Source: a virus
Lineage: Duplodnaviria > Caudoviricetes
Virus record (IMG/VR): IMGVR_UViG_3300024046_000005
Span: 3,842 to 67,841 of that record
DNA: 64,000 bases
Reading direction: 5' to 3' (one strand)
How positions within the stretch are numbered: the stretch's first letter is position 1; each line of letters begins with the position of its first letter. The notes beneath the pieces were generated by a model. That model was not told the origin of the DNA. It ran no database searches and was given only the letters and a program-made list of their open reading frames with translations. Positions 3,723-59,605 of this stretch are shown one piece after another. The position numbers were made by a program, and so were the translations under genes.

Positions 3723-4636
3723 GTCAGGCCCTCCAGTTCAAGGTCGCAGTCGGAATAGTCAAAGTAGGAAATCACGATGTCGAAGCTTTTGTAGAAGCCA
3801 TACACCGTGGTCGATTCGTAGCGGGTGGAGCCCATCCACAGGCATGCCCTGGCGCGTACGCTGGAGAGGAAGCGGTGCAGGGAGTCCACCTCGTCAGCGC
3901 CGAGCTGCAGCGTGAAGCTGGCGCGCTTGGCGAAATTGCGCTCGACGACCATCACGTCGCCGAAGTCGTTGCGCTCCTTGCGCGAGTAGTCCTGGATGCC
4001 CAGGCGCGCGCCGTACTTCACGCCCATGGAGAAGCGCCGCGCCTGGCCGAACAGGATCACGCCCACGCCGAGGTCTGCGGTGCCGGTGAAGTCGATGTAC
4101 AGATCCGCCGTGGGGTAGCTGGGCAGGTCGGTCAGGATGGCCTGTGTCGGCGAGCGGCGCTCCCCGAAGTACCAGGCCCACCAGCCCGACTCCAGCGGAT
4201 GGGCGCTCAGGTCGATGGTGCGGTCGTACACGTCCCCGGTGACCGGCGCGACAACCCGCGCACGCATGGCCGTGGCGCCGGAGAGATTGAGCGCGGCCAG
4301 CGCCGTGGCAGCACGGCCCGGGCGCAACTGGTAGCTGATCGCATCCGCCTGCTTGACTTGAGAGCTGACGGACTGGTCGAACGGCTTCCAGCGATTCGTG
4401 GCGCCGACTTCCTGCCAGTTGAGCACGTCCGCGCCGGGCGTGTTGCCGGTGTTGCCGTCCACCAGGCTTTCGTAGACCTTGTGCGCGGACACGACGATGA
4501 CGCGGTCGCCCTGGTCGTACGTGGTGTCGGCATCCCAGGCGTCGTAGTCCGTCTCGGGCACGTTGCAGTCGATCAGCATGGCGTCGGTGAGTGCGACGGG
4601 ATCGACAACGGTGATGGCGTAGGGGCCGGCTGTCAT
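3719..4636 (-). CDS. Minor tail / tail-tip protein
   Basis: Start reassigned to MTAGPYAIT at 4636, overlapping the tape-measure stop; directly follows the tape measure. Confidence 0.65.
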   Translation of the reverse strand: MTAGPYAITVVDPVALTDAMLIDCNVPETDYDAWDADTTYDQGDRVIVVSAHKVYESLVDGNTGNTPGADVLNWQEVGATNRWKPFDQSVSSQVKQADAISYQLRPGRAATALAALNLSGATAMRARVVAPVTGDVYDRTIDLSAHPLESGWWAWYFGERRSPTQAILTDLPSYPTADLYIDFTGTADLGVGVILFGQARRFSMGVKYGARLGIQDYSRKERNDFGDVMVVERNFAKRASFTLQLGADEVDSLHRFLSSVRARACLWMGSTRYESTTVYGFYKSFDIVISYFDYSDCDLELEGLT

Positions 4637-7600: not shown

Positions 7601-9813
7601 TAGTCGGCCTTGTACAAGGCGTCCACGTAGCGCTGCTGTTGGCGCACGGCTTCTTCCATTTTCGCCAGCGCCTCGGGTGACCACGGGCCTGCGTCCTTTT
7701 CGTTCTCCAGGGCCAACTTCATTTGCGCAAGGGTCAGCTCCTCAATGGCTGTCTTGCTCTTGCCGTAGGTGGCGTTGGCGGCCTCCTGCTGGTCGGCGTT
7801 GTTGCCGATGGTGTCGGCGGACTTTTGCAGGGTGTCGAGGTACTTGCGGTATGCCTTTTCGCTGTCCTCTATGGCTTTGGCTTGGCGTTCTTCTTCCGTG
7901 CGGGTGCGCTGTGCCGCTCCCAGCATTTGGGCGACCACCAGCAACGCCTCTTTCTCTTTGCGGGTCTTGGCGTCCAGCTTGCCTGCGAGTTCTTCTTGCA
8001 GCTTCGCGGCAAGGCGCTCGCCTTCCGTGGCCTTCTCTGCCGCTGTGCCGCGCTCGCGCAGGCGGGCGGTGTACTCTTCTTCCAGCTTGATCTTGGCCTG
8101 GATCGCGGCGATTTCGCGCTGTGCAGAAGATTCGGATTGGGCGGTTTGTTTTAGAGCCTTACCAGCAGCGCTTGCATCAAACGTCCTTTTGGCAAGCGCT
8201 GAAACCTCCTCAATGTACTTTTCCTGACTTATAACTCCATTCTTCAGGGCTTCCTCATAAACCTTCAGATCGGCGAAATACTGTTTATTCACCCCGGATG
8301 CGCGCATGCGAACATCCATCAGGGCCTTCTCAGATTCGGCCTGCTGGCGTGCATAGTCCTGATAGGATGCACCACGCGACTTATATCCCGATTGATCGCG
8401 GGGATCACTCCCGGCAGAAACACCTAACAAGGCGTCTTGTGCCGTCTTTGCCTCACGATATTTATCAACCAGCCGCTGTGCATGTGCAAATGCCTCGCGC
8501 AGCATCAGATTGCTACTTTTTTCCGCGCCGGATCGCTTTAACCTATCAAGCTCAGACTCGGCGTCTTTCAGCCTAGTCCCAACGTCCTGGGCTGTATAAG
8601 AAAAGGCGTTTAGTGGATTTACGAAGGCCAGCACGGAACCAGCCCCGGCAATCATTTGCCTAGTAAACCCCTTGCCACTAGCGCGGGCCGCATCCATTGA
8701 ATTAGATACGTCATTCATTGCGTCCGTCAGAATGTTGACCTGACCCGCCCAGAACTGACTTATCCCGGTATCCCCCGCACTTTGCTTTATGCGATCAAAT
8801 GCGTCGTTGAATCTATTTGTTGCCGCATCGAGTCTATTCGCGGCTTTCTCAGCAGAATCTCCGATATTTTCATTGAGTGCTTTTGCAAATTTCGGCAAAA
8901 AGTCATCGGCAATGACTTGGCCTTGCTCCAGCATCTTCCCGAGTTCAGCGGTGGTGACGCCCATTGCGCGCGCCGCGATCTGGAACGCTCCAGGCAAGCG
9001 CTCGCCAAGCTGCCCACGGAGTTCCTCGGCCTGCACCGTTCCCTTGGAGATCATCTGCTGCAAGGCGAGAAGAACCCCGCTGCTCTGCGAAGCAGAAAGC
9101 CCCATCACTGCCGACGCCTTGGCGACGGACTCAAACACATCTCGCGCTTTCCCGCCCTCCAGCGCAGTCCCACGCGCCGCCGCCTGGAATTGCATGTACG
9201 CCTGGGCTGTGCTCTTGAATTCCAGACCAAGTGCGTAGGTGGTATTGCGTAGATAGGCGATTTCCGCCGCGCTCCCACGAGTAGATGCAAAATCCAAACC
9301 GATGCGCAGGCGCTCAACGGCGGCACTAGCTTCATAAAGTGCTGCTATCGCATCTTTTGCGCCCCGAACAATATGGTTTGCGGCGAACAAAGAAGCCCCT
9401 GCTTTCGCAAGGTCAAGAATGGACAGCGAGGAAGCACTTGCAGCATTTCCAACGCCCTTTGTCGCTTCCTCCATCTTGCGCAAATCAGCCAGGGCGGACT
9501 GAAATTTCGAGCGATCCAGCCCCCTGAAATCAAGCTGCAACTCAAATTTCTGGCTTGCGGTTTTGCCAAGCATTTCAAGTTCGCGTGTGGCCTTCTTAAT
9601 TGAGGACAGCATGCGACCCTCTGCGCGTGTCAATTTGTCCGCACCCTTCTCCATGCTTGAACCCATGCCATCAATGGCTAGGCCAGCCTTGCTTGCAGAA
9701 TTGGCAACTACAGACGCCATCCCGGAAGCCTTGCTTCCAAGGCGACTAAATGCCGCTTCTGCCTTTTCGGATGAAACAGTAACTTCGCCTTGTATTGTCA
9801 GATCGGATGCCAT
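4633..9813 (-). CDS. Tail tape measure protein (~1726 aa)
   Basis: Length; Ala-rich helical composition; ELRGQLGERLPGAFQIAARAMG motif; start MASD at 9813. Confidence 0.92.
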   Translation of the reverse strand: MASDLTIQGEVTVSSEKAEAAFSRLGSKASGMASVVANSASKAGLAIDGMGSSMEKGADKLTRAEGRMLSSIKKATRELEMLGKTASQKFELQLDFRGLDRSKFQSALADLRKMEEATKGVGNAASASSLSILDLAKAGASLFAANHIVRGAKDAIAALYEASAAVERLRIGLDFASTRGSAAEIAYLRNTTYALGLEFKSTAQAYMQFQAAARGTALEGGKARDVFESVAKASAVMGLSASQSSGVLLALQQMISKGTVQAEELRGQLGERLPGAFQIAARAMGVTTAELGKMLEQGQVIADDFLPKFAKALNENIGDSAEKAANRLDAATNRFNDAFDRIKQSAGDTGISQFWAGQVNILTDAMNDVSNSMDAARASGKGFTRQMIAGAGSVLAFVNPLNAFSYTAQDVGTRLKDAESELDRLKRSGAEKSSNLMLREAFAHAQRLVDKYREAKTAQDALLGVSAGSDPRDQSGYKSRGASYQDYARQQAESEKALMDVRMRASGVNKQYFADLKVYEEALKNGVISQEKYIEEVSALAKRTFDASAAGKALKQTAQSESSAQREIAAIQAKIKLEEEYTARLRERGTAAEKATEGERLAAKLQEELAGKLDAKTRKEKEALLVVAQMLGAAQRTRTEEERQAKAIEDSEKAYRKYLDTLQKSADTIGNNADQQEAANATYGKSKTAIEELTLAQMKLALENEKDAGPWSPEALAKMEEAVRQQQRYVDALYKADYTKVARSMDEALAVASEQQVVTLEELSLIGQTELERRKIIAAREIELELAKELREIDKQTFDGTAEENERKREELRAKARQKARVKTETAIARETLTEWQKTADQINQSLTDALMRGFEDGKGFAENLRDAVQNMFKTMVLRPIISAVMAPVSGVVNGVVQGFIGGNAQGGGNGVMGTLGMASNAYSAYNALTATGGNLGAIGGWMGGSMSTANMAGSLYANTTATGIDGLLATNGAYGTAAGAGSAGAGGAGAGASYAAGAYAAIAAVVLNALGAFRSKRTVGGGLRGTLGDGDLTPYTVVRDGGTLFSGPDFRIEDEGKRIADLERRLEDLRASGQGASREAYETQETLNARRALYDPMLAAAKKQSDDIQAAYDKLRDNVGNMADALGLGSDKVRDFTMAFGTDEVHPDLNAGVGVDTQGLTAEEAAAKIAEALATANNTLAEQVIGRWETTTETVRRTRQDRGPIDGDLDIPGIYSEYEEVITGTHYVASEFARDGEQAIDTLTRLATHITNVNSVFETLGFTLYDASLAGADAANRFADLLGGLDNFNAVTSSYYQNFYSESERLTTARAAVNKQLSDLGVNIDLDSMGARTQYRSAVEAAMAAAASAQDEGTTSIVLKDTGKTAEETAAALLELNSAFAAVTTSVDATVAALPALGQTASGLASTISSAMLGTFSGGSVGAAMAASVQDGIYNAIAGGFAQQISNILVQGIVTPVVTAAMTGANATAAVSAASIGLVVEQAKQMVSVAAQVMQELQSSGLLSEISNAIGSIQIPTMRAATSIGNYNSAVSNSAREAAEAAERIKEAWADITTSLLDQVKLIRGEIAQDAGHGMDWWQAQFTIDTAMARAGDQDAAGRLASVSDSLLAVAANNAASLYELQSLRASVAQSLQDTAAYANAYANGKSVPRAAPSSISVALPAVQAIGATPIVVSSDPSVVAELRALRDDNKAQAGEIARLNLRVAKLLERWEGDGLPPTREETLP

Positions 9814-9825
9814 TTCGATTTCCCA

Positions 9826-9886
9826 AAAGAAAAGCCCACGGGTATTAGCCGTGGGCTGAAAAAACAAAACCCGCCGAAGCGGGTTT
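9826..9886 (-). terminator. Two tandem hairpins with T-tract upstream of the tape measure gene
   Basis: AGCCCACG/CGTGGGCT (9833-9857) and AAACCCGC/GCGGGTTT (9867-9886). Confidence 0.6.
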
Positions 9887-10223: not shown

Positions 10224-10736
10224 CTAGATGGTGCAACCCTCATGAAGTCGGCGCTTGGCCGCCAAGTACGCTTCATGTGCTTCATGGGGCGTTTTAAAGT
10301 TGCCGATCTGACGCCACTTGCCAGCGACGTTGATGCAGGCACGCCAGGGCTTGTTCTTCTTGTCATTGCGGTACACGCCAAGCAATCCGCTATCTGTGTT
10401 GCCCCTGGCAGAGCGCAAATTCTGCTGGTTCAGACTAGCATTGGCTTCTCGCAAATTGCTCATACGGTTGTCCGCCCTGTTGCCGTTGATGTGGTCGATC
10501 CATTCGGCGGGCCAATGTCCGGTCACATGGAGCCACGCAAGCCTGTGCGCCTTGTAAGTTCGCCGATCAATGGAAATGAAGGTGTACCCAGTCGGCTCAT
10601 GAAGGCTGCCAGCAACCTTTCCGACCTTCGTTCTATTTGAAGTCCGAACTTTCCACACAAACAGCCCCGTCTCAGGGTCGTAGTGAAGCAGTTCCCTCAG
10701 TCTCTCGGCTGTCAGGTCATTCTTTGGTTTTGTCAT
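10224..10736 (-). CDS. Free-standing HNH homing endonuclease with AP2-like C-terminus
   Basis: HRLAW...IDHINGNRADNRMSNLRE; C-terminal WRACI...IGNF...AHEAY. Confidence 0.88.
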   Translation of the reverse strand: MTKPKNDLTAERLRELLHYDPETGLFVWKVRTSNRTKVGKVAGSLHEPTGYTFISIDRRTYKAHRLAWLHVTGHWPAEWIDHINGNRADNRMSNLREANASLNQQNLRSARGNTDSGLLGVYRNDKKNKPWRACINVAGKWRQIGNFKTPHEAHEAYLAAKRRLHEGCTI

Positions 10737-10799
10737 CGACTTTCCCCCAGGAAAGCTGCGCCCTGCCGGAGTTCCAGCATGGAAGCAGAATGTGAGTGG

Positions 10800-10856
10800 A
10801 ATCAGCTACCAGCGCTTATCTAGCAAGCGCTGGCAGCTATTGAAGTAGTAGCGTCA
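10800..10856 (-). repeat. 57-bp palindromic element, copy A (starts at the rha stop codon)
   Basis: Core CCAGCGCTT-N7-AAGCGCTGG; similar to 12905-12961 and 52970-53026. Confidence 0.75.
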
Positions 10857-11630
10857 GGCGGGCAATGCCTTGGTGCGCCCGCGCTTCAGATAGTCGTCCA
10901 GCGCGCCCAGGTGGGATGCCACGCGCTTGTTCAGCGCATCCAGCATCTCCGGGATGCGCGCCATCGGGATGTGCTGCACCAAGCTGAAATAGTCGTCCTT
11001 GCTGAAACTGACCACAGCCGCATCGCCGGGGATGAGGCGGCTGTGCATGCACCCGCTGTCGGGGCTGAAGCTGACAAGCATGCGTTGCCGCATGACGGCA
11101 TCGGCGATCAAGCCTTGAAGGGCTTCGACTGGTATCGCATCCATGCTCGGGCCGGGCTTGCCTTCCTTCACGGATGTGCGGTAGGCGCTGAAGTAGTCCA
11201 GCGCCACCCGGCGGGCTGCGGCCATCGCCGGGGCGTCGGTCACGTCGATGGCCGGGTTTGCCGGGCGCGTCGTGCGGGCCAGCAGCTCGGCTTCCATCTT
11301 GTTGAAGGCAGCCAAGTAGGCCACTTTCCATTGCATCGCCTCCTTGCCGGTGAATCCCATCGCCAGCAGCGTGAAGCCATCGCGGGTGATGCGGTAGGCG
11401 GTGGCTTGTTGCACGCCGCCCTTGCCGTTGGTGAACTCGGTTTTTACCTCCGCAAAATTGCGGCGGTAATCCTCGGGCAGCTCGGCCAGCAGGTTGCGAA
11501 TGGCGCGCAGCACGGTGTCGTGACGCTTGCCGAAGTGCGCGGCGATCTGGTTGCTGGTAGTGGTGACGTGGCCCTCGATGACTTCGAGGTCAGGGGTTGC
11601 GACGGCAACGGCGGTAGCGGTGTCAGCCAT
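10854..11630 (-). CDS. rha: Rha family phage regulatory protein
   Basis: TTSNQIAAHFGKRHDTVLRAIRNL...YRITRDGFTLLAMGFTGKEAMQWKVAYLAAFNKME; RBS AAGGAG before MADT. Confidence 0.9.
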   Translation of the reverse strand: MADTATAVAVATPDLEVIEGHVTTTSNQIAAHFGKRHDTVLRAIRNLLAELPEDYRRNFAEVKTEFTNGKGGVQQATAYRITRDGFTLLAMGFTGKEAMQWKVAYLAAFNKMEAELLARTTRPANPAIDVTDAPAMAAARRVALDYFSAYRTSVKEGKPGPSMDAIPVEALQGLIADAVMRQRMLVSFSPDSGCMHSRLIPGDAAVVSFSKDDYFSLVQHIPMARIPEMLDALNKRVASHLGALDDYLKRGRTKALPA

Positions 11631-11686
11631 GATGGACTCCTTGACGACTGGCTTGATACCTGCCACCCACTCGACCAAGAGAAGGT

Positions 11687-11758
11687 GGCAGACCGTGCAG
11701 GTTGGTCGACCGGGTCAAGGAACCGGCACCCCCTTTCGGGAGTCCCGCACGGCCCGCC
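11687..11758 (-). ncRNA. c4-type antisense RNA (P1/P7 c4, P4 CI-like cloverleaf)
   Basis: Stems GGCGGGCCGTGCGGG/CCTGCACGGTCTGCC, ACTCCC-GAAA-GGGGGT and GCCGG/CCGGT; loops CCTTGAC and CGACCAA are complementary to sites upstream (11837-11857) and downstream (11639-11678). Confidence 0.8.
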
Positions 11759-11891
11759 AAAACTTGGAGCCGCGCCCGCGCAGCGCGGGAGAAAAAGAAA
11801 AAGCCGCTGACACCAAGAGGCGCGCGGCTTGCTGCGCCTTGACTACCGGGCGACCAAGCCCGCATCCCCGGAGGGATGGCGCAAGTATAGC

Positions 11892-12245
11892 TCAATAGAA
11901 AGACCATATGTCAAACCTTTGAATCGCGCCATGCAGCCCCGTGTCATGCTCGTATATCGAAACCGGCTCGCCAGCAGGCCGCGCAGTGAACTCGCTGCTA
12001 CCACGCATAGCCCCTTCAACCGACCGGATCAGCGTCACAACTTCCATCCGCGTCTGCGCCCACGCAGAAATCTGCATCAACGTCCGCCGAGTCCCTGGAG
12101 CGCTGTTGTCCATTGGATTAATAGACTCACCCCCAATGCTCTGCCAAACCAAATAGGGTGTTCCAATCCCGTATTCCGCAACATCTGGGCGAACATTCGA
12201 GCATATTCCTTTAAGGAGATTAATTAATGCGGACTCCATGCTCAT
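11892..12245 (-). CDS. Second, divergent tail-terminator-like (DUF3168) gene
   Basis: PYLVWQSIGGESI...MQISAWAQT parallels PYVTWQHVGGQAV...IQVNTWADT of 18635-19015. Confidence 0.75.
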   Translation of the reverse strand: MSMESALINLLKGICSNVRPDVAEYGIGTPYLVWQSIGGESINPMDNSAPGTRRTLMQISAWAQTRMEVVTLIRSVEGAMRGSSEFTARPAGEPVSIYEHDTGLHGAIQRFDIWSFY

Positions 12246-12673
12246 CTTTCCACCTCTTTCACAAACCTGCGCTTGATCGCTTCGCGCACTTGCGCCCGTG
12301 TTTCTGCCACCGCGCTCCCAATGAAAGACCGGGCGGGCGCACGGCTATTGCCCATTTCAACCATGAACCCGTAGGGCGCATCTTCTTTGTTGAAACTTAT
12401 GTGATATGTGCTCACATCTTTGTAGCTCCTAGTCTTGCTGAACACTTGATATATGCTGTCTCGAAGGTTGCCTGGGGCATATGGCCCATACTTTCTTCCA
12501 TCAATATAGAAGTAGTGCTCCTTTTCAGAAATGGGAGCATTTATTTTTGCGCGGTCGTAGATTATTTGCGCCCCAGCTTGCGCAGCGGGCCGCGTGGCCG
12601 CATGCAACTTGTCAGCCTCAGCCCTTAACTGCGCCTGGAAGCGTGCCACGTTCATCCGAACATTCATCCCCAT
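12242..12673 (-). CDS. Second, divergent HK97 gp10-like gene
   Basis: GAQIIYDRAK...GNLRDSIY...APYGFMVEMG...PARSFI; parallels 19018-19566. Confidence 0.78.
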   Translation of the reverse strand: MGMNVRMNVARFQAQLRAEADKLHAATRPAAQAGAQIIYDRAKINAPISEKEHYFYIDGRKYGPYAPGNLRDSIYQVFSKTRSYKDVSTYHISFNKEDAPYGFMVEMGNSRAPARSFIGSAVAETRAQVREAIKRRFVKEVER

Positions 12674-12819
12674 AGCACCACCCCGCCCGCCTTGTCTGCG
12701 CCCGCTGCAACCTTGTCGCCCATAGCCTGGGCATCGGCGGCTACCTGCTTGAAGACAGGCGAAGCATCGTTCTGCGCACCGACGACAATTTCGGCGTGCG
12801 GATTGGTTCTTTCTGCCAT
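12664..12819 (-). pseudogene. Probable 5' fragment of another tape measure gene (51 aa)
   Basis: MAERTNPHAEIVVGAQNDASPVFKQVAADAQAMGDKVAAGADKAG resembles TMP N-termini; preceded by double hairpins like the true TMP. Confidence 0.5.
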
Positions 12820-12904
12820 GTGGTTTGCCCAATAAAAAAGCCCCGCGACGTTGGCCGCGAGGCTTGGGGGAATGAAAAAACCGCCCGGAGGCGGTTTGCA
12901 GTTA

Positions 12905-12961
12905 AATCAGGCTGCAGCGCTTATCTGGAAAGCGCATGCAGCTATCAGGTAAGTAGCATCA
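12905..12961 (-). repeat. 57-bp palindromic element, copy B (starts at the ant stop codon)
   Basis: 49/57 identical to the reverse complement of 52970-53026. Confidence 0.8.
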
Positions 12962-14002
12962 AACTGGCATCAGCACTCCGGGAGCGGTCTGCCTAGCGAT
13001 TATTGCGTTGGCCTGACTGGCGCTCCGGCGAGCATGCTTGGCGAACTTCCCAAATGCAGTCTCTGCCATACGGATCAACTGCTCATCGCTCAGTTGGTGC
13101 CCGTCGCCGCGCTCCAGGTTGGCGAAATATTCATCCGGGGTAAGGCAGATTGCATCCATCGCCAGCGGTTTGCAGTAGGCGTCTACCGCTTTGTCCCCCC
13201 AGCTTTTCTTGTGGAAGTACAGCATCCACTGGTCGGTCAGTGCGTCAGGCTTCTTGCCTTCCATCACACACTTGAATACTGCGCGTTGCACCTGGGCCGC
13301 GGCCTGTGAGGCTATGTGGAATGCATGGTCGAGGCGTGCCACGTCGTCAAGGCTCGGTTTCGGCGCTTCGTCCACCAGTTCCCAATCGACCGTGTGCCGG
13401 TTGACGATGGAAATGGCCTCGGTTAGTTCGTGACGCGGAATCTCGCGGTAGCTCACATGGAAGTGGGTCTTGAGCTTCGACCATGCTTGCATGATGAACT
13501 TGCCTTGCACCTTGGTGTCGCTGGTCAGCTTCTTTGCCATGCCCTCCACCATCTGGCGCAGGGTGTCCGCCTCCTCCTTGGTCAGCACGTCGCCGGGGTT
13601 CACCGAGTAGGCGGCACGCGGGTTGATGGCGATGCCGTCGTTCCAGTATTGCCAGAGCACGTCGTCGCACTCATTCTGGTACTCGACCACCTTGGCCCGC
13701 GCTTCCGCGTTCTTGACCTTGCCAGCCTCGATGCCGGAAAGCCAGCCCGGCAACTTCCGCAGCGGCATGCAAAGCATGTCTTGCAGACCGCCAGACGAAG
13801 GTATTCTCAACTCAAGAACACCCCAGCGACGGGCATTGGTCTTGATCTTGGCGTGCTGCCCGTGCCACGTCAGCCCCATGCCGGTGATGATTGGCTTCAT
13901 TGGGGTGTACGGCTGGCTCTCATGCTCAACCACATAGAGGTCAGCGCCGTGGAACGGGACGGTGATTGCGCGGGTAGGTGCTACTTGGGTAGAATTGCTC
14001 AC
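12959..14002 (-). CDS. ant: Antirepressor, P22 Ant N-terminal domain
   Basis: VPFHGADLYVVEHESQPYTPMKPIITGMGLTWHGQHAKIK...LCMPLRKLPGWL...YQNECDDVLWQYW; probable GTG start at 14002. Confidence 0.85.
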   Translation of the reverse strand: MSNSTQVAPTRAITVPFHGADLYVVEHESQPYTPMKPIITGMGLTWHGQHAKIKTNARRWGVLELRIPSSGGLQDMLCMPLRKLPGWLSGIEAGKVKNAEARAKVVEYQNECDDVLWQYWNDGIAINPRAAYSVNPGDVLTKEEADTLRQMVEGMAKKLTSDTKVQGKFIMQAWSKLKTHFHVSYREIPRHELTEAISIVNRHTVDWELVDEAPKPSLDDVARLDHAFHIASQAAAQVQRAVFKCVMEGKKPDALTDQWMLYFHKKSWGDKAVDAYCKPLAMDAICLTPDEYFANLERGDGHQLSDEQLIRMAETAFGKFAKHARRSASQANAIIARQTAPGVLMPV

Positions 14003-14078
14003 GTTGAATCCTTGATTGCGTTCTTGGGTTTTCACACTCGACGCCCCGGTTGCTGCAACTTCCGGGGCGTTTCCTTTT

Positions 14079-14264
14079 TCAGGCTGCGCGGACATTCTTC
14101 TGGCCCTCCTCATTTCTGGTCATTTCGAGCCTCATCACGATCTCCTTGGAGAGCGACCGGAAGCCCGTCTTGGCTTTCTCTCGTAGGTAGCTTTCCAACT
14201 CGTCCGACAGCTTCACACTCACGGGGGAGCGCCGCTTCGGCTGGCCTTCTTCAGGGGCGGGCAT
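14079..14264 (-). CDS. arc: Arc-like ribbon-helix-helix repressor
   Basis: VSVKLSDELESYLREKAKTGFRSLSKEIVMRLE; directly upstream of ant. Confidence 0.8.
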   Translation of the reverse strand: MPAPEEGQPKRRSPVSVKLSDELESYLREKAKTGFRSLSKEIVMRLEMTRNEEGQKNVRAA

Positions 14265-44142: not shown

Positions 44143-44379
44143 TCATGCATCGGTGCCCTCCCCTGCCCTTGCGGGTTCGCTGCGGGATGGTGCAGTAGCT
44201 GCATCAGCATCAGCGCCTTCCAGCGCATCAGGGCGCACCGCCCTCAAATACATCATTCGCGCCTTGGGAATGCCGCTTTTCTTCCAGTCGCTGACCGACG
44301 GCATACGCACCCCGAACATGCGGGCCACCTCGGCGGTGTCACCCAGCGCCTCAATGACCTTGATTGCGTGTGGATTCAT
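44143..44379 (-). CDS. cro: Cro-like repressor
   Basis: VIEALGDTAEVARMFGVRMPSVSDWKKSGIPKAR; divergent from cI. Confidence 0.85.
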   Translation of the reverse strand: MNPHAIKVIEALGDTAEVARMFGVRMPSVSDWKKSGIPKARMMYLRAVRPDALEGADADAATAPSRSEPARAGEGTDA

Positions 44380-44386
44380 GCCCCGC

Positions 44387-44450
44387 ATTGTCAGGCATAA
44401 CTAACCATCAAGTCAACCATAACTTACATCACTATTGTTAGGATTGCCTT
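44387..44450. promoter_or_regulatory. OR/PR region
   Basis: Minus-strand TTGACT-N18-GACAAT; operator ATTGTCAGGCATAACTAACCAT (44387-44408) plus two weaker copies. Confidence 0.7.
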
Positions 44451-45161
44451 ATGTCGCTATCCGACCGGCTGCACCTTGTTTTTGAAAAAAACCCCAAGCT
44501 CACCCAGGCAGGGCTGGCGCGTGCGTGCGACATATCCCGTGCGTCCGTGAACGCTTGGGTCAGAGGCCCCACGGAAAGCATCGACGGCAAGTACCTCACT
44601 ACTGCGGCCGCATACCTCGGAGTGACACCGCACTGGCTTTCTACTGGGCGCGGCGACATGGTTGCTGCTTCCACCACCTCCAACGTCATCGCCCTGCACC
44701 CAGACGACAACTTGCCGGATAACATGGTGCAGATTCCCGAGTACCGCGTGAAATTCAGCGGCGGCAATGGCACCGTGGCCATGACCTACGAGTTGGCCGA
44801 AGAAGTAGAGCCAGCCACCTACCGCCTATCGTGGATGCAGCGCATGCGCCTGAACCCGGAGAAACTCAAGCGCTTCAAGGTCAAGGGCGACAGCATGGAG
44901 CCCCTGCTGTACAGCGGCGACTCCGTGCTGGTGAACCTAGCAGAAAACGACATCAAAGAAATATTGGACGGCAAGGTGTACGCCATCCGCTACGGCAACG
45001 AGCTACGGGTCAAACGCCTGTACCGACGCCTCGATGGCGGCCTGACCCTGCGCAGCTACAACCCCGAGCACAAAGACGAAGACCTGACACCCGATCTGGT
45101 GGCCCAGCACATCACCGTGATTGGCCGTGTCAGGGACAAAAGCGGTGCGGGCGGGCTGTAG
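44451..45161 (+). CDS. cI: CI repressor (HTH plus S24 peptidase)
   Basis: TQAGLARACDISRASVNAW; VKGDSMEP...VKRL. Confidence 0.93.
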   Translation: MSLSDRLHLVFEKNPKLTQAGLARACDISRASVNAWVRGPTESIDGKYLTTAAAYLGVTPHWLSTGRGDMVAASTTSNVIALHPDDNLPDNMVQIPEYRVKFSGGNGTVAMTYELAEEVEPATYRLSWMQRMRLNPEKLKRFKVKGDSMEPLLYSGDSVLVNLAENDIKEILDGKVYAIRYGNELRVKRLYRRLDGGLTLRSYNPEHKDEDLTPDLVAQHITVIGRVRDKSGAGGL

Positions 45162-46295: not shown

Positions 46296-46604
46296 AGTAG
46301 CACGTCGCACCGTGCTCAATGAAGCGCCTGCCGAACGCATCATCTGGCGGTTGCATCGCGGCGACTTGAAAGGCCAGCCGCGCCCTCCGCGCCATCTCGT
46401 CGGCTGCAGCTTCAAGCGCCGCTAGAGCCGCACCGTTCATTTCCATCATGGGAGCTGACGTTCTCGCCGACTCCCGCCCATCAACAAGCACCAACTCTTC
46501 ACCAACTTTCAGCTCACCCGTCTCGGTGGGCTTTTTTTCGTCTTCATGTTGGGCGGGCATGGGGAGAGTGTAGCGGAGTTGTCAGTTTTAGCTGTCGAAT
46601 TCAC

Positions 46605-46634
46605 TTGACACGATTGTTAGTTATGCCTGACAAT
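46605..46634 (+). promoter_or_regulatory. PL promoter with OL operator
   Basis: TTGACA-N18-GACAAT; 46613-46634 is 21/22 identical to the reverse complement of the OR operator. Confidence 0.8.
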
Positions 46635-47044
46635 ACACCCATCGCACCACACAAGCAAAACACCCCCGGCAAGCGATCCGAAGCCGGTAAGCCCTACAGG
46701 AAGCAGCGGGCGGGGTTAGGCCAGAAGGCCGCAGCGAAGTGATGCGATTGGGGTCAATCCATCGAGAGCAGCCCGACAGCGCCCATTAACACAGCCATGG
46801 ATACAGCCGCACCACGGAAGCGGCCCGCCCCAGCAGTCACGCGGCGGAAGCAAAGCGGCTCACGGCCCGTCTGCAAAAAACGGGGCACGAAGCAAGACAC
46901 CACGGCGGCGAATAGTGATTCGCCACAAAGGCGCCAGGCCGAAGCGGGAGCCCGACTACTCGGGGTGATGTCCGCCAGCCCCTCTCACGAGGGGCCGAAC
47001 CACAGCCTTGCGCGCAGGGCTGTGGTTTGAACAAGGAGAGCAGC

Positions 47045-47467: not shown

Positions 47468-48116
47468 TCCCCCGTCCGCCCTGGCGACGTAAAAGGCCAG
47501 GGCCATCAATAGCGCGCATTGTGGTTGACGACCGAACGCTCCAGCCTAGTCAACGGGAGTGGCAGTGCGGGCTATTGATGGTGGATGCGAAGCCCTCCGT
47601 TACGCCGAAAGCGTGCGTAGCTCGGTGGAGCATGTGTGGCGCCTGGCGGCCCGCTTGCATCGAACTGCATGACCACCCCGGGAAAGCAGCGGGGACTATC
47701 AACCAACCTCACTCACTGAAAGCTCGCTACCGCAGTCCCGCGAGCTATGCGCCGCCTTTGCGCAAAGCGGATGAAATTGGGATCGAGTGGGGTTGGTTGA
47801 TGGTGAAGCCGATACAGCACATCGAAGGCACGCTCTGGCGCTCGGCCGCTCCACCGTCACGGTGGCGTCCAGCATCCCTTAACAACGGGTGTAGCCAAAA
47901 CGTTGAGCCGGTAGGCGTGCTCCCTGTCGATAGCCATCACGCGAAATAACTGTGAAAGCAGGAGAACGGACGGGGCGAAACGCCGTCGCTGGATTCGTAA
48001 CCAGCACCATCATTGAAGCGGCGGCGTGAGGTAGCAGTCACGTCCATGCACTGATCCTGCGGACTGGGCAGATAGAGAACCCAGCACCTAGCCGGTAAAG
48101 CCCGGCCCGCTTCAAT

Positions 48117-48190
48117 GATGGTGAATGGCAGCGCTAGGGATTCCTGCTTGCAGGCCGAAACGCGAGGCGGTTCAAGTCCGCCCACCATCA
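48117..48190 (+). ncRNA. tRNA-like structure (acceptor stem plus T arm; non-canonical D/anticodon region)
   Basis: GATGGTG/CACCATC 7-bp stem; GGCGG-TTCAAGT-CCGCC T arm; 74 nt; no canonical anticodon arm and no encoded CCA. Confidence 0.45.
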
Positions 48191-48471
48191 ACCCGCGCAG
48201 TGTGATTCAAGGCGTTGCCCAAAAGCTGCGTCTCGGGGTGCCAAGCCTTGAATTACCCAATCGTCCGGGCCGCGCGCCGGAGCTGGAACCGTAACCAGCA
48301 CTATCAAGAGCGGGTCGGGGGTTCCTGGCCGTGTGCGCAGCGAGTGGAAGCCTCGCACCAATCCTCCCCTGAGCGGACGCCACGCCGCTCCTTGCCCCGA
48401 TGTCGGGGCTTTTTTATTCCACCGCCAGCCGCCCACCGAGGCGGTTTTCTTTCCCTCAACCGGAGCACGTT

Positions 48472-49062
48472 GTGCACATCACCATCAACCACCCAACCTT
48501 CAATTTCGGCCTCGCGCCCAGCGCCATGGATCGCGCGTTCTTCGCTGCGCTAATGCCCACTACTGACAACGATCCCGACACCCCTGCCCCTGCGCCCGCC
48601 CAGGCCATTGCAGGCCGCCCGCAGATCGGCGAATACTGGCCCGGCCAGGGCGGCATCTACGCAGGCGATTTTCGCGCTGGCGATGGTTCTATCTACGGTC
48701 TGATCGTCGCCCAGGATCAGGACATTGGCACAGCCGCCTGGGGGTCGAACGGCGAGCTCGACCTGAGCAACTGGGATGGCCTGACTAACACCAAGGCACT
48801 GCTAGACAACTGCCCCGCCGCCAAGCTGGCCTCCGGCTACACCCGCGACGATCACAGCGACTTCTACCTGCCCGCGCGCCGCGAGCTGCTGCTAGGCGCG
48901 GCCAATCTGCACGACACCTTCGGCACCGAGAGCTGGTACTGGACCAGCACGCCCCGTGCCGAGCACTACGCCTGGGCGGTCGATTTCGAGACCGGGAACA
49001 CGCCCAGCTTCACCCGGTACAACGAGTTCCGGGTCCGCCCCTTCCGCAGATTCATCTATTAA
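48472..49062 (+). CDS. DGR target protein 1 (DUF1566/C-type-lectin-like C-terminus)
   Basis: RBS GGAG plus GTG; IGEYWPGQGGIYAG, YLPARRELL, WYWTST; ends with VR1. Confidence 0.88.
   Translation: MHITINHPTFNFGLAPSAMDRAFFAALMPTTDNDPDTPAPAPAQAIAGRPQIGEYWPGQGGIYAGDFRAGDGSIYGLIVAQDQDIGTAAWGSNGELDLSNWDGLTNTKALLDNCPAAKLASGYTRDDHSDFYLPARRELLLGAANLHDTFGTESWYWTSTPRAEHYAWAVDFETGNTPSFTRYNEFRVRPFRRFIY
48970..49048 (+). repeat. DGR variable repeat VR1
   Basis: 69/79 identical to TR; all 10 mismatches at TR adenines. Confidence 0.97.
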
Positions 49063-49101
49063 GCCCTTCGCCCCTTTCTTCCCCCCACAGCAGGAACATC
49101 T

Positions 49102-49512
49102 ATGACCACCGAAACCCAAGCGACCATCCCCGCTATCAACCAGCCGTGGCCCGAGCAGGGCGGCATCTACATCGGCTCGCGCCTCATCAACGGCGTCGTG
49201 CATCACGTCGTCATCGCTGACGGCGGCACAGCGCACGACCTTGAAGACCAGGCGGCCAAGGACGCCCAGGGCGTGCAGTTCGGAGAAATCAACGGGCATA
49301 GCGACTGGCATGCCGGCGACCAGGAAGACGTGATGCTGGCCTACATCAACGCCCGGGAGCACTTCGAGCCCACCTACTACTGGAGCCGCAGCGAGCACCA
49401 CGGCTGGCCCTGGGCGGTCGATTTCGAGTACGGAGACACGACCACCTTCTACCGGCACGACGAGTTCCGGGTCCGCCCCTTCCGCAGTTTTCCCGATTCA
49501 TCCATTCAGTAA
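49102..49512 (+). CDS. DGR target protein 2 (paralog of target 1)
   Basis: INQPWPEQGGIYIG, YYWSRSE; ends with VR2. Confidence 0.88.
   Translation: MTTETQATIPAINQPWPEQGGIYIGSRLINGVVHHVVIADGGTAHDLEDQAAKDAQGVQFGEINGHSDWHAGDQEDVMLAYINAREHFEPTYYWSRSEHHGWPWAVDFEYGDTTTFYRHDEFRVRPFRSFPDSSIQ
49408..49486 (+). repeat. DGR variable repeat VR2
   Basis: 69/79 identical to TR; all 10 mismatches at TR adenines. Confidence 0.97.
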
Positions 49513-49536: not shown

Positions 49537-49998
49537 ATGGCACTCCACACTGATACCGAGATCTACCGGGCCACCTACGACTTGACCAAGATGGTCACAG
49601 CCTACGTGGCCAACATGGAGAGGAACTACAGGGCGGACTTCGGCGCCGAGTTGCGCAGGCGGTGCATGACGCTGGTCATGCGCACCTACGAAGCCAACAC
49701 CTCCGACGACAAGCCGCCCATCCTGCGGCGGATGCGCCAGGAGGTGGAGGCGGTCAACCTGTCGCTGCGCCTTGCCAAAGACCTCAAGCAGATCTCGCCC
49801 AAGCAGTACGGCAACGCCATCGCCCTCACCGCGAGCATAGCCAAACAGGCCACAGGGTGGCAGAGGCATTCGGAGAGTGCGCTTGTCGCCGAGTCGTCAC
49901 GGCGGCCCGGCCAATGCGCCATGGAATCTGGTCGAGCCGCTGGAGCACAACCCCACCGACAGGCGCAGCAGGGATATCAGCGGCAGCAGCCGGAGTGA
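49537..49998 (+). CDS. avd: DGR accessory variability determinant (four-helix bundle)
   Basis: IYRATYDL...LRLAKDLKQISPKQY...SIAKQATGW; between the targets and TR/RT. Confidence 0.88.
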   Translation: MALHTDTEIYRATYDLTKMVTAYVANMERNYRADFGAELRRRCMTLVMRTYEANTSDDKPPILRRMRQEVEAVNLSLRLAKDLKQISPKQYGNAIALTASIAKQATGWQRHSESALVAESSRRPGQCAMESGRAAGAQPHRQAQQGYQRQQPE

Positions 49999-50054: not shown

Positions 50055-50133
50055 ACCTGGGCGGTCGATTTCGAGAACGGAAACACGAACAACAACAACC
50101 GGAACAACGAGTTCCGGGTCCGCCCCTTCCGCA
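50055..50133 (+). repeat. DGR template repeat TR
   Basis: 79 bp, 23 adenines including 8 AAC codons; lies between avd and RT; preceded by hairpin 50012-50034. Confidence 0.97.
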
Positions 50134-50152
50134 TATTCCACCGAGAGCTTCT

Positions 50153-51334
50153 ATGGATTCTGGCTACTCAATCGGGAAGCTGGTACAGGCCTACGAGGAC
50201 TGCAAACGGCACAAGCGGACCACCGCGAGCGCCCTGCACTTCGAGCAGCGCCTGGAGCACAACCTGATGGAGCTGCACGAGCGCCTGCTGGACGGCAGCT
50301 ACCGCCCTGGGCGCTCCATCTGCTTCGCGATCAGCCGCCCACGGCCGCGCGAAGTGTGGGCCGCGAGCTTCCCAGACCGGATCGTGCATCACCTAGTCTA
50401 CAACCAGATCGCCGACCGATTCCAGCGGCGGTTCATCGCGGACTCGTGCGCCTGCATCCCCGGACGCGGCACGCTGTACGCTGTAAAGCGTCTCGAAAGC
50501 AAAGTGCGCAGTCAGACGCAGAACTGGAGCCGCCAAGGCTTCTACCTGAAATGCGATTTGGCCAATTTTTTCGTCAGCATCGACAAGCGCAAGCTGTGGC
50601 CGCTGCTGGTCGATCAGATCCATGAGCGCTGGTGGCGCGGCCTCACCAAGACCGTGCTGTTCCACGATCCGCGCGAGGACTTCGAGTTGCGCGGCAGTCC
50701 GGAGACGCTGGCCGCCGTGCCCGCACACAAGCGCCTGATGAATGCCGACCGCTACCACGGGCTGGCAATCGGCAACCTGCCGTCGCAGTTCTGTGCCAAC
50801 GTGCTCTTGAACGAGCTGGATCAGCACGTCAAGCACCGCATCCGCGCCCGGCACTACACGCGCTACGTAGACGACATGGTGCTGCTGCACGAATCGCCCG
50901 ACTGGCTCAACGCCGCGCTGGCCGACATCAACGCCTTCTTGCCAGGGTTGGGCCTCGCGCTCAACCCTCGCAAGACCGTGCTGCAGCCCATCGACAGGGG
51001 CATCGACTACGTGGGCCAGGTCATCCTGCCCTGGCGGCGCGCCACCCGCCGCCGCACGCTGCGCCAGGCCTTGGAGCGGCTGGGAGACATGCCCGACGAG
51101 GACGTGTACGCCAGCGGCAATAGCTACCTTGGCCTTGTACGCCAGGCCAGCCACAGCCACCACGAGCAATCCCTGATCTGCCGCGCCCTGCTCAAACGCG
51201 GGCACGCAGTCGATGGGCTGCACTTCAACAAAGCATTCCGCCGACGATCCGTAGGCAGTGATGCAGCAACGACAAGCCCGCCCCCAGCGGGCTTTTTTAC
51301 GCCCAGGAGCCAACGATGCACACAGACCTCGTAG
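50153..51334 (+). CDS. DGR reverse transcriptase
   Basis: RPREVWAASFPDRIVHH, LKCDLANFFVSID, GLAIGNLPSQFCAN, YTRYVDDMV, IDYVG; start MDSGYS after TR. Confidence 0.95.
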   Translation: MDSGYSIGKLVQAYEDCKRHKRTTASALHFEQRLEHNLMELHERLLDGSYRPGRSICFAISRPRPREVWAASFPDRIVHHLVYNQIADRFQRRFIADSCACIPGRGTLYAVKRLESKVRSQTQNWSRQGFYLKCDLANFFVSIDKRKLWPLLVDQIHERWWRGLTKTVLFHDPREDFELRGSPETLAAVPAHKRLMNADRYHGLAIGNLPSQFCANVLLNELDQHVKHRIRARHYTRYVDDMVLLHESPDWLNAALADINAFLPGLGLALNPRKTVLQPIDRGIDYVGQVILPWRRATRRRTLRQALERLGDMPDEDVYASGNSYLGLVRQASHSHHEQSLICRALLKRGHAVDGLHFNKAFRRRSVGSDAATTSPPPAGFFTPRSQRCTQTS

Positions 51335-51785: not shown

Positions 51786-52895
51786 ATGAACACGAAGCAC
51801 GTTATTTCCGTCTCAGGCGGCAAGGACAGTACGGCGACCCTGCTGCTAGCGCTGGAGCGTTGCCCCGCCGGCTCCGTGGTGCCCATCTTCTGCGACACGG
51901 GCAACGAACACGCACAGACCTACGCTTATCTCGATTACCTCGAAGGCGCGCTGGGCGTGAAGGTTCACCGGCTGCGCGCGGACTTCACCAAGGAACTGGC
52001 GGCGAAGCGCCGATTCATCGCCCGCGACGTGCGCCACGCGCGCGAATACCGCAAGGTGCCAAAGACCGACCGCGCCGGGAATCCGGTGTGGCTGCGCGAC
52101 AAGGCCGGGGCGGTGCGCCTGTTCCCGGTTCTGGATGACGATGGCCAGCCCACGGGCGAGCTGGCGCCGCGCCAGGCGTGGGGGTGGGATGGTGGCCGCA
52201 GGGTGCGCTGGTCGAACAAGGCCAAGCGGCGCGCGCTGTCGGTGATGTACCCGAGCGGCAATCCGTTCCTCGATCTGTGCATGTGGAAGGGGCGCTTTCC
52301 CTCGCGCAAGGCGCAGTTCTGCACCGAGGAACTGAAGCGCAACATGGCCGTGGGCTTTCAACTCGATTTGATGGAAGCCGGGCACCGCGTGGTCAGTTGG
52401 CAGGGGGTGCGCCGCGACGAATCGGAGAACCGCCGCCACGCCAAAAAGGTGGAGCGCGTGGGGCGCGGGCTGTGGATCATGCGGCCCATCGTGGCATGGA
52501 CGGCAAAGCAGGTTTTCGACTTCGCAGCCGCCCGCCACATCCACCCCAACCCGCTCTATCTGCAAGGCATGAGCCGGGTGGGCTGTATGCCTTGCATCAA
52601 TTGCAAAAAGGCCGAGCTGCGCCAGATCGCCGCGCGCTGGCCGGAGCATCCAGAGCGCATTGCCGACTGGGAGCGGATAGTCGGGATGTGCAGCAAGCGC
52701 GGCTTCTCCACCTTTATGACTGCTGGCAACATTCCCGAAAAGGATAGACGTCTAATATTCGCCGACCTGAATATCTGGGCGCGCATTTTGTGGAGCAAGA
52801 CCAGCCGGGGCGGAAAGCAGTTCAACCTGCTGGACGAGGTGGAATACGACGGCGCTGGCGGTTGTAGTAGCTCCTACGGCCTCTGCGAGCAATAG
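51786..52895 (+). CDS. PAPS-reductase-family (PP-loop) protein
   Basis: ISVSGGKDSTA, CDTGNEH, QGVRRDESENR, GMSRVGCMPCI. Confidence 0.9.
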   Translation: MNTKHVISVSGGKDSTATLLLALERCPAGSVVPIFCDTGNEHAQTYAYLDYLEGALGVKVHRLRADFTKELAAKRRFIARDVRHAREYRKVPKTDRAGNPVWLRDKAGAVRLFPVLDDDGQPTGELAPRQAWGWDGGRRVRWSNKAKRRALSVMYPSGNPFLDLCMWKGRFPSRKAQFCTEELKRNMAVGFQLDLMEAGHRVVSWQGVRRDESENRRHAKKVERVGRGLWIMRPIVAWTAKQVFDFAAARHIHPNPLYLQGMSRVGCMPCINCKKAELRQIAARWPEHPERIADWERIVGMCSKRGFSTFMTAGNIPEKDRRLIFADLNIWARILWSKTSRGGKQFNLLDEVEYDGAGGCSSSYGLCEQ

Positions 52896-57630: not shown

Positions 57631-57868
57631 CGGAACCGAAGGAACCCACGGCCAAGCAATGGAAGCGCCGCGCGCTGCAGGAGGCGCGGGAAGCCATTGT
57701 GTGGGCGTTGGAGCAGCAGGGGTGATCGTCCATCCTCATGCTTGGGGCGATGGTAGCCCCCATCTCGGTACATCCCACGGAAACTGCCCAACGTACCGAA
57801 ACCCCTAGCCCCACGCGCACTTACCAACCGAGCCCCGCCATTGAGTGGGGCTTTTCTTTGGGACGGAA

Positions 57869-59605
57869 ATGCTCACACCCCAATTCATTTTGGCGTTGTC
57901 CGCCAAGCTGGTCATCGACCTGTTCGCCGGCGGCGGCGGCGCATCCACCGGCATTGAGCAGGCCATCGGCCGCCATGTGGACGTGGCGATCAACCATGAC
58001 GCCGACGCCATCGGCATGCACAAGGTCAACCATCCGCAGACCCGGCACTACCGGGCGGACGTTTGGGAAGTTGACCCGCTGGTCGTCACGCACGGCACCC
58101 CCGTGGGCCTGCTGCACGCCTCGCCTGACTGCACCCACCACAGCCAGGCCTTGGGCGGCCAGCCGCGCAGCCAGGAAATCCGATCCCTCGCCTGGGTAGT
58201 GCACCGCTGGGCCGGCAAAGCCCGGCCGGATGTCATCACCCTGGAGAACGTCGAGCAAATGCTGCTGTGGGCTCCGCTGGTCGCCAAGCGCGATCCAGCC
58301 ACCGGCCGCGTCATCACGCTGGACAAGGTGACCGACCCGGCCACGGGCAAGACTGCATACCGCGTGGCCGATCCCGGCGAAGTCGTTCCCAGGCACAACC
58401 AATTTCTAGTGCCCTGCAAGAAGCGCGTGGGCCACAACTGGCGCAGGTTCGTGGAAGGGCTGCGCGCCATGGGCTACAAGGTCGAATGGCGCGTCATCTG
58501 CAATGCCACGCTGGGCGCGCACAGCACACGCACGCGCCTGTACATGGTGGCGCGCTGCGATGGCCTGCCCATCGTATGGCCAGAGCAGACGCACGCCCGC
58601 AAACCCACCAGCAAGCTCAAGGCCTTCCGGCCGGCGGCCGAATGCATTGACTGGAGCATCAAGGGCACCAGCATCTTCAACCGCAAGAAGCCGCTGGCCG
58701 AGGCCACGATGCACCGCATCGCCTACGGAATGCGCAAGTTCGTGCTGGAGAGCGATGACCCGTACATCGTAGAGAACGTGGCGCACGCTTTCACGCCTGT
58801 GACGCACACCCGGGACATCGCCTACGACGTGGCCGACTCGATGCGCACCATCACCACTGCCAAGGGCGGGGAAACGGCACTCATGTCCGCCTATCTGGTG
58901 CAGATGGGGTATGGGGAGCGAGACGGCCAAGCGCCGCGTGTCCTTGATCCTGGCCTGCCGCTAGGCACGGTCACGGCGGGTGGCAACAAGTTCGGCATCG
59001 GCACCGCGTTCATGGTGCAGGCCAACGGCGGCTTCAACACAACGCCCGCCCGCGATCTGCGCGATGGCATGTCCACCGTGACCACCAGCGGCAGCCAGCA
59101 GCAGCTTGTGACAGCGCATCTGACGACGCTGCGCCACCACAGCACGGGCCGCGATCTGCGCGAACCCATTGCGACCGTGGCAGCCGGCGGCGAGCACCAC
59201 GCCCTGGTGCAGTACGAACTCAGCCAGGACGACGAAGCAGGCGCGCTGCGCTGCGCTGCGTTCTTGATGCGCTATCACGCCAACGGCGGCCAGTGGGCCG
59301 ACCTGCGCGACCCGATGACCACCGTCACCACGCACGACCGCCTGGCGCTGGTGACGGTGTGGCTCAAGGGCGAACCGTGGGTGATCGTGGACATCACGCT
59401 GCGCATGTTGGTGCCGCGCGAACTCTACAACGCCCAGGACTTCCCGCCCGGCTACGTGATCGACCGCACCGCCAGCGGGAAGCCGCTGACGAAGACCGCC
59501 CAGGTGCGCATGGCGGGCAACAGCGTTAGCCCGTTGCCCATGCGGCTGATCGTAGCTGCGAACTACTCCGAGGCTGCCAACGGCAAAGCCCGCAAGGTGG
59601 CATAG
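57869..59605 (+). CDS. DNA cytosine-5 methyltransferase
   Basis: DLFAGGGG (I), ASPDC (IV), LENV (VI), RTRLY (VIII), RMLVPREL, MAGNSV (X). Confidence 0.92.
   Translation: MLTPQFILALSAKLVIDLFAGGGGASTGIEQAIGRHVDVAINHDADAIGMHKVNHPQTRHYRADVWEVDPLVVTHGTPVGLLHASPDCTHHSQALGGQPRSQEIRSLAWVVHRWAGKARPDVITLENVEQMLLWAPLVAKRDPATGRVITLDKVTDPATGKTAYRVADPGEVVPRHNQFLVPCKKRVGHNWRRFVEGLRAMGYKVEWRVICNATLGAHSTRTRLYMVARCDGLPIVWPEQTHARKPTSKLKAFRPAAECIDWSIKGTSIFNRKKPLAEATMHRIAYGMRKFVLESDDPYIVENVAHAFTPVTHTRDIAYDVADSMRTITTAKGGETALMSAYLVQMGYGERDGQAPRVLDPGLPLGTVTAGGNKFGIGTAFMVQANGGFNTTPARDLRDGMSTVTTSGSQQQLVTAHLTTLRHHSTGRDLREPIATVAAGGEHHALVQYELSQDDEAGALRCAAFLMRYHANGGQWADLRDPMTTVTTHDRLALVTVWLKGEPWVIVDITLRMLVPRELYNAQDFPPGYVIDRTASGKPLTKTAQVRMAGNSVSPLPMRLIVAANYSEAANGKARKVA

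Follow-up and report, generated by a model that had tools for sequence, protein, structure and literature searches.

An intact DGR in a PL-type early operon most likely diversifies two small soluble proteins, T1 and T2, that are made early and are not part of the virion; we consider this reading probable. The DGR lies in a 64,000-nt stretch of DNA (hereafter, the window) that spans positions 3842-67841 of IMGVR_UViG_3300024046_000005, a linear record of 67,841 nt rated 86% complete. The source is a dormant, lambda-like temperate phage, and its host is a Comamonadaceae bacterium. There is direct support for the anatomy of the DGR, for the fold of T1 (as a model), for the position of the cassette in the operon and for the conservation of that position.

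A complete DGR with two target genes

The cassette runs T1, T2, Avd, TR, RT on the + strand. T1 (48472-49062) and T2 (49102-49512) carry VR1 (48971-49048) and VR2 (49409-49486), respectively, and are followed by the gene for the Avd accessory protein (49537-49998), the 78-nt template repeat (TR; 50056-50133) and the gene for the DGR reverse transcriptase (RT; 50150-51334). Avd matched phrog_3206 ('Avd protein of DGR'; E 1.2e-25) and the Pfam family bAvd (PF22296; 4.8e-10), the latter at 40.3 bits against a cut-off of 40. RT matched RVT_1 in Pfam (2.6e-14) and phrog_1423 (1.4e-106); its ORF is open from 50039, and the likely start is the ATG at 50150. An RT-15 RNA motif (Rfam RF03018; 49877-50058, +) scored 135 bits, well over its gathering score (82; E 7e-33), spanning the 3′ end of avd and the spacer and reaching the first bases of TR. 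The same motif was present in all seven RT-bearing related loci tested, phage Magia among them (L004, L006, L012, L026, L071, L081 and L102), and, as far as sequence can tell, it appears to form a conserved 5′ portion of the clade's DGR RNA. We conclude that the DGR is intact and belongs to an RT-15 clade of Burkholderiales and Pseudomonas phages.

VR1 and VR2 each differ from TR at nine positions, and all 18 mismatches fall at TR adenines. With 22 A in the 78 nt of TR, the chance of all 18 mismatches falling at A is ~(22/78)^18. Translated in frame, TR reads WAVDFE-N-G-N-T-NNNN-R-NN-EFRVRPFR and includes eight AAC codons; the residues encoded by VR1 and VR2 differ from each other at the majority of these eight AAC-templated positions. 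TR, VR1 and VR2 end in a shared GC-rich block, GGGTCCGCCCCTTCCGCA, beyond which they diverge. A 6-bp hairpin 3′ of VR2 had an energy no better than that of shuffled sequence, and no hairpin was found 3′ of VR1.

We searched the whole 67,841-nt record for further VRs, using a pattern that left every TR adenine free and allowed up to three mismatches elsewhere. Since the pattern matched only VR1, VR2 and TR, there is no remote VR in the tail genes. The search thus agrees with the sequence-only reading, made before this analysis, that the tail/adhesin genes lack VR-like sequence, and it revealed no VR copy in the part of the record outside the window, a possibility which that reading had raised for structural genes.

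Predicted fold and properties of T1 and T2

The two targets are as small as first described, at 196 and 136 aa, and their coordinates hold. T1 begins with a conserved segment of 45 aa, which a Pro/Ala linker joins to a DUF1566/Lcl_C-type C-type-lectin (CLec) domain; T2 is a CLec domain with almost no N-terminal extension. Translation of T1 starts at a GTG at 48472, with GGAG 6 nt upstream. The JGI, ENA and Logan gene calls arrived at this start independently, which is also backed by conservation of the N-terminus among homologues.

T1 (9.2e-7, 29.6 bits) and T2 (1.4e-4, 22.5 bits) both matched the Pfam family Lcl_C/DUF1566 (PF07603) at scores below its gathering score of 34.9; a precomputed collection table assigns PF07603 to a protein identical to T1 and to most of its homologues. 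phrog_4245 matched T1 (4.3e-26) and T2 (1e-11), with the match limited to the C-terminal 170 of the 583 profile positions, and, for the Lcl C-terminal-domain fold, a profile hit had an E of 0.0024. An AlphaFold2 model of T1, built from a 137-row alignment, reached a pLDDT of 89.7 and a pTM of 0.77; a model from a 24-row alignment (pLDDT 43.6) was discarded. The top structural match of the T1 model was the Legionella Lcl-CTD (8q4e; Foldseek E 8.7e-7), with a VIA Z of 14.2 and an rmsd of 3.6 Å at 28% identity over 119 residues. Next came a Bacteroides fimbrial protein (Z 12.0) and the fibre-tip domain of Bdellovibrio Bd2740 (Z 11.0), and canonical C-type-lectin-like domains followed at Z ~9. We conclude that T1, as modelled, has a C-type-lectin fold of the Lcl C-terminal-domain type. 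T2 is 38% identical to T1, and the start of the T1 domain aligns with T2 from near residue 10; on its sequence matches and this alignment, T2 is likewise a predicted CLec domain.

VR1 encodes residues 167-192 of the 196 in T1, and when homologous proteins are aligned, it is the columns encoded by the VR that are hypervariable. Homologues are numerous: those of T1 of 190-200 aa number 646, and the T1 profile reaches 7952 representatives at E ≤ 0.001. The N-terminal 45 residues are modelled as a short strand-like motif and one helix (pLDDT ~75), within a low-complexity segment of ~50 aa. As the sequence-only reading had it, there are no fibre repeats: T1 is one CLec domain with an N-terminal tail of ~50 aa, free of tandem repeats, and neither T1 nor T2 has an Mtd-like N-terminal anchor, a trimerisation domain or fibre repeats.

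Both proteins have a pI of 4.8, and T1 has one Cys and T2 none. No signal peptide, lipobox or twin-arginine motif was found in either by inspection. The highest 19-residue Kyte-Doolittle means are 0.91 for T1 and 1.19 for T2, none above 1.2; both proteins are acidic and hydrophilic, in keeping with the earlier claim that they lack a signal peptide or TM segment. Virion proteins likewise lack signal peptides, and for that reason a protein without a signal may still attach to the particle after its assembly.

A lambda-type early-left operon

A cI-like repressor gene with HTH and S24 peptidase domains (44451-45161, +; Pfam Peptidase_S24 2.9e-19, HTH_3 1.3e-6) and a cro-like gene (44143-44388, -) diverge from one control region, in which a PR-like promoter/operator (TTGACT-N18-GACAAT; 44387-44416, -) precedes the cro-like gene. 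A staphylococcal-nuclease homologue and a DUF2513 gene lie 3′ of cI, followed by a terminator-like hairpin (46511-46540, +) that closes this cI-SNase-DUF2513 unit and by a promoter-like site (TTGACA-N18-GACAAT, 10/12; 46605-46634, +). The latter, a PL-like early promoter, is an inverted copy of 44387-44416, located 2.2 kb away and identical at 27 of 30 bases (90% identity). Operator-like repeats were found at 44390-44405, 44412-44427 and 44430-44449. Together, 44387-44449 and 46605-46634 are, by their sequence, a predicted OR/OL-type operator set.

Because a scan for sigma-70 promoters returned two sites against 2.0 expected by chance, the PL call rests on identity to the PR region. Twin PL/PR promoters are the arrangement of lambdoid phages. 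Given that 46605-46634 copies the PR region in this pattern, the PL call holds. The targets had been placed ~1.9 kb downstream of PL; T1 is 1.87 kb downstream, from a promoter backed by its 27/30 match to that of cro. The cI/cro intergenic region also contains three copies of a GTCAGGCATAACTAAC-like word.

PL and T1 are separated by two small genes, an ORF-poor stretch of 0.9 kb and a tandem pair of terminator-like hairpins. The first hairpin (48394-48416, +) is GCCCCG-ATGT-CGGGGC followed by TTTTTTATT, and the second (48427-48454, +) is AGCCGCC-CACCGA-GGCGGTT followed by TTCTTTCC; the pair ends ~20 nt 5′ of the T1 ribosome-binding site. With two terminators before T1, expression might be very low.

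The genes 3′ of RT encode PAPS-reductase-like, Erf, YqaJ exonuclease, RdgC, dUTPase and C5-methylase proteins. We conclude that the cassette lies in a PL-type early-left operon of the lambda type, with a cI/cro pair, a shared operator and recombination genes downstream. The tape-measure, tail-fibre, holin and endolysin genes occupy 376-9867 on the opposite strand, and the tail, head and lysis genes all run opposite to the cassette. The linear gap between the DGR targets and the tail genes is ~44 kb. Measured the other way round on a circularised genome, across the int/att end, it would be ~20 kb; the originally reported separation of 45 kb is therefore sound as a linear distance and too large if the genome is circularised. 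The record's own integrase gene lies outside the window.

Several further features of the window were noted. The first ORF after PL (46797-47030, +) encodes 77 aa with an arginine-rich N-terminus, and the ORF-poor stretch comprises 0.9 kb within 47470-48460, with the two terminators at its end. The 77-aa ORF and the ORF-poor stretch could be an antitermination module of the N/nut or put type. The 77-aa ORF, a 161-aa ORF in the ORF-poor stretch and a 130-aa ORF after RT had no PHROG match, and because these small ORFs lack such a match, an N-type antiterminator stays a guess. We considered the 2.2 kb upstream of T1 as part of the cassette and rejected this, as the sequence is not conserved beside T1 in other loci. 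The PAPS-reductase-like gene (51786-52895, +; PF01507, phrog_424) lies directly 3′ of RT and has ~80% DNA identity to genes of the Acidovorax phages Alfacinha1 and Alfacinha3. It alone gave matches, in Acidovorax phages, in a near-DNA search of phage records, and no such gene was found beside the DGR in related loci. The C5-methylase homologue of the window (57845-59605) lies 6.5 kb beyond RT, and a C5-cytosine methylase gene directly follows RT in at least six related loci (L030, L036, L037, L047, L083 and L093). Finally, the gene for the 1744-aa tape-measure protein has, immediately upstream, a gene for an HNH endonuclease (phrog_99) and two genes for Ant/Rha-like regulators (10224-14113, -); homologues of the HNH endonuclease recur near the DGR in several related loci, e.g., L031, L040 and L062.

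The position of the cassette is conserved in related loci

We took 94 related loci from viral and genome collections and compared them by means of tblastn probes, ORF calling and all-against-all clustering. RT is present in 65 loci, 57 of which have at least two targets and 11 at least three. As hosts, the records give Acidovorax, Comamonas, Delftia, Alicycliphilus, Castellaniella, Achromobacter, Trinickia, Limnobacter and Gallionella, together with many Pseudomonas. In close loci, T2 orthologues lie directly 3′ of T1 and share 51-84% identity.

The cassette is on the + strand in all 94 loci. Among the 50 loci with 9 kb or more of upstream sequence, 30 have a cI-like repressor gene there on the same strand; counted from RT, a cI homologue lies 4-12 kb upstream on the same strand in 43 related loci. 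Predicted genes of at least 100 aa between cI and RT are mostly on the cassette strand (244/292), and CII and cro lie beyond cI on the opposite strand. Recurrent neighbours are YqaJ, Erf, SSB, RdgC, SMC-like ATPase, DUF2303, ParB-like proteins, C5-methylases and lambda-type integrases, the integrases being downstream of the cassette. Probes made from the tail and capsid genes of the window had no match within 10 kb of the cassette in the 94 loci, and late-gene matches near the cassette were confined to endolysin and holin homologues in a single locus, L060. The early-operon layout generalises to ~90 related loci. Terminator-like hairpins with a perfect stem were found before the first target in 15 of the 95 regions compared, nearly all from the closest subgroup, and before 119 of 1244 control genes.

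Two phages, L071 and L086, are near-identical: none of the 340 nt compared upstream of the VR is changed, as against 20 of 85 nt within it. Judged by these differences and by the hypervariable VR columns, the DGR family appears to be active. No VR variants of the window phage itself are on record.

A tail-sheath scan found a sheath gene in 1 of 33 records, and the window has none. Because so few records have a sheath, independence of the cassette from tail type rests mainly on Magia.

Two side observations concern the early arms of related phages. A Castellaniella prophage has a Proteo-phage-1 RNA (RF03044; L012, 4862-4939, +) in its early arm, ~5 kb upstream of its DGR targets. T1-like DUF1566 genes occupy the same early-left position in the cultured Pseudomonas phages vB_Pae_U9 (L099), Medea1 (L100) and PAN70 (L101), in which no closely related RT was found; in U9, the annotated CDS under the T1-like match is on the opposite strand.

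Comparison with known DGRs

RTs 53-62% identical to that of the window are encoded by Burkholderia phages Magia, vB_E192a and vB_PL1, by Pseudomonas phages Haboob, phPA-G, Cruim01, SC_8_H2H8_2017 and LPPA56, and by Shewanella phage vB_Sb_QDWS. Magia (Burkholderia cenocepacia, MT701587; PMC7883833), whose RT is 58% identical, has an annotated order like that of the window: Cro, immunity repressor, gp57, nuclease, RecT, ATPase, terminator, gp47, gp46, Avd, RT, integrase. As in the window, small lectin-fold targets, Avd, the RT-15 RNA and RT lie in series; gp57 and gp47 are lectin-fold proteins, and the annotated terminator precedes gp47. The authors of the Magia genome reported its DGR and short targets of 120-150 aa with no other domains (PMC7883833). 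The two phages also differ. Magia, a myophage, has a single remote target (gp57) near the repressor, whereas the targets of the window are in tandem, its 196-aa T1 has an extra N-terminal segment, its host belongs to another family, and its S24-type repressor and PL/PR twin promoter set it apart. A tblastn search with T1 at E ≤ 1e-3 did not recover the Magia targets.

The window shares its components with the mtd-avd-TR-brt cassette of Bordetella phage BPP-1, namely a C-terminal VR in a CLec fold, Avd, TR and RT, as well as adenine-specific mutagenesis and AAC-rich template codons. Mtd is a trimeric protein of the tail-fibre tip, encoded among tail genes (PMC5758913). T1 and T2, unlike Mtd, are single-domain proteins encoded in an early-left operon, and Lcl-type and canonical CTLDs, not Mtd, ranked highest in the Foldseek and VIA comparisons of T1. 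The best structural match of T1, the Legionella pneumophila Lcl-CTD, falls into CLec2 'category d' of Wu et al., who found about half of DUF1566-class targets to be short and domain-only (PMC5758913). Lcl and LdtA, the latter representing DUF1566-type DGR targets, are exported surface proteins (LdtA being a lipoprotein), whereas T1 and T2 lack an export signal and are encoded by phage early genes.

A non-structural DGR target has been described in Quimbyvirus, where a second target is encoded away from the structural module, amid genes for methyltransferases and nucleases, and a role in phage-host conflict was proposed for it (Benler et al. 2021, PMC8008677). Quimbyvirus, unlike the window, retains a tail-side target, has a Bacteroidetes host and has an RT split over three frames; in the window, both targets are non-structural and adjoin RT. 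Roux et al. class viral targets only as 'structural' or 'unknown' (PMC8144416). We conclude that neither the element nor the idea is new, the layout being widespread and already present in published phage genomes. The contrast with the classical phage DGR drawn by the sequence-only reading was therefore overstated in its novelty, as the layout occurs in Magia (PMC7883833) and the idea of a non-structural target in Quimbyvirus (PMC8008677). Its description of the function as uncharacterised was fair. Our literature search found no characterisation of, or experiment on, small phage DUF1566 early proteins. The papers on Medea1, the P. syringae phages Aurca01/Cruim01 and PhiPan70 contain no mention of a DGR and no virion proteomics.

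Proposed function of the targets

We propose that loss of the repressor, upon induction or in a fresh infection, would allow PL to fire, and that read-through of the two terminators would then yield TR RNA, RT, Avd, T1 and T2. Adenine-mutagenised cDNA would replace VR1 and VR2, so that in each C-type-lectin domain eight positions templated as Asn, on one face, would be randomised. T1 and T2 would act as soluble early proteins in the infected cell, or be released at lysis, and the progeny would carry a library of binders to be put to trial at the next infection. T1, T2, Avd and RT would thus be silent in the lysogen and made only after repressor loss and terminator read-through; expression would presumably be early and the site of action cytoplasmic. 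The original interpretation, that a hypervariable surface acts inside the host early in infection or induction, draws partial support from small, signal-less, non-fibre CLec targets in an early operon, far from the tail genes and with no remote VR.

More specifically, the DGR might serve as an anticipatory, antibody-like counter-measure, with an intracellular pair of binders, different in each progeny genome, that neutralises host proteins relevant to defence or takeover. We regard such an anti-defence role for T1 and T2 as tentative and, on balance, doubtful. If it were true, binders driven by PL would be present within minutes, infection would be established by those variants that chance to neutralise the variable proteins of a new host, and host range would be switched inside the cell rather than at adsorption.

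Alternatively, T1 and T2 may be accessory components of the virion (decoration proteins, fibre-tip adaptors or secondary receptor-binding proteins, for example) whose genes merely chance to adjoin RT in the early arm and which, once made in the cytoplasm, dock onto the particle, in which case the DGR would serve tropism switching. DUF1566/CLec domains cap long tail-fibre-like proteins of other phages, as the 583-residue phrog_4245 profile illustrates, and the N-terminal 45 aa of T1 are conserved among homologues and could be an anchor or docking peptide. More generally, every phage DGR target studied by experiment is an adhesin (PMC5758913, PMC8144416). Nevertheless, the targets belong to an early operon under repressor control, whose strand is not that of the late genes, with no match to a tail or capsid probe of the window within 10 kb in ~90 loci, and the cassette occurs alike in a myophage (Magia) and in phages that lack a sheath. 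T2 has no anchoring N-terminal segment, and that of T1 is unlike any structural protein of the window: compared with all window proteins, tail proteins included, it showed no resemblance (best E 0.09). We therefore consider a place in the virion unlikely.

T1 and T2 could also be expressed in the lysogen, as cytosolic hypervariable binders that sense proteins of incoming phages for defence or superinfection exclusion. They are encoded on the same strand as cI, and in lambda, rex and sieB lie between cI and the recombination genes. Such a recognition role has been proposed for DGRs in general by Belalov et al. (PMC10053308), and a preprint proposes intracellular DGR-diversified sensors for cellular DGRs (bioRxiv 10.1101/2023.09.22.558884). 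This explanation is weakened by the layout of the operon, since the terminator at 46511-46540 closes the cI unit and two further terminators lie 5′ of T1; moreover, PL should be repressed in the lysogen because it carries a PR-type operator. There is also no effector domain in or beside T1 and T2, and the flanking genes vary among loci. A role as sensors in the lysogen is thus improbable. Least probable of all, binders freed at lysis might act outside the cell, coating receptors or debris and so sparing progeny, or binding environmental or host-surface glycans, as the closest solved relatives are extracellular adhesin domains (Lcl-CTD, the Bacteroides fimbrial protein and the Bdellovibrio Bd2740 fibre tip), but early timing and terminator-limited expression are a poor fit to a stoichiometric role there.

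Implications

On the preferred reading, in which the DGR diversifies early, non-virion proteins, tiny soluble early proteins are what a large, conserved clade diversifies, one made up of temperate phages of Comamonadaceae, Alcaligenaceae, Burkholderia and Pseudomonas. Since the targets are early and soluble across the clade, in contrast to the adhesins studied so far, this suggests that targeted hypermutation also serves a step after DNA entry. Cultured relatives (Magia, Haboob, phPA-G and Cruim01) make the function directly testable. DGR surveys that use criteria based on structural genes (PMC5758913) would tend to score such cassettes as non-phage, so that the share of 'cellular' DGRs may be overestimated. 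In several of the RT-bearing phages, the RT is annotated as 'retron-type'.
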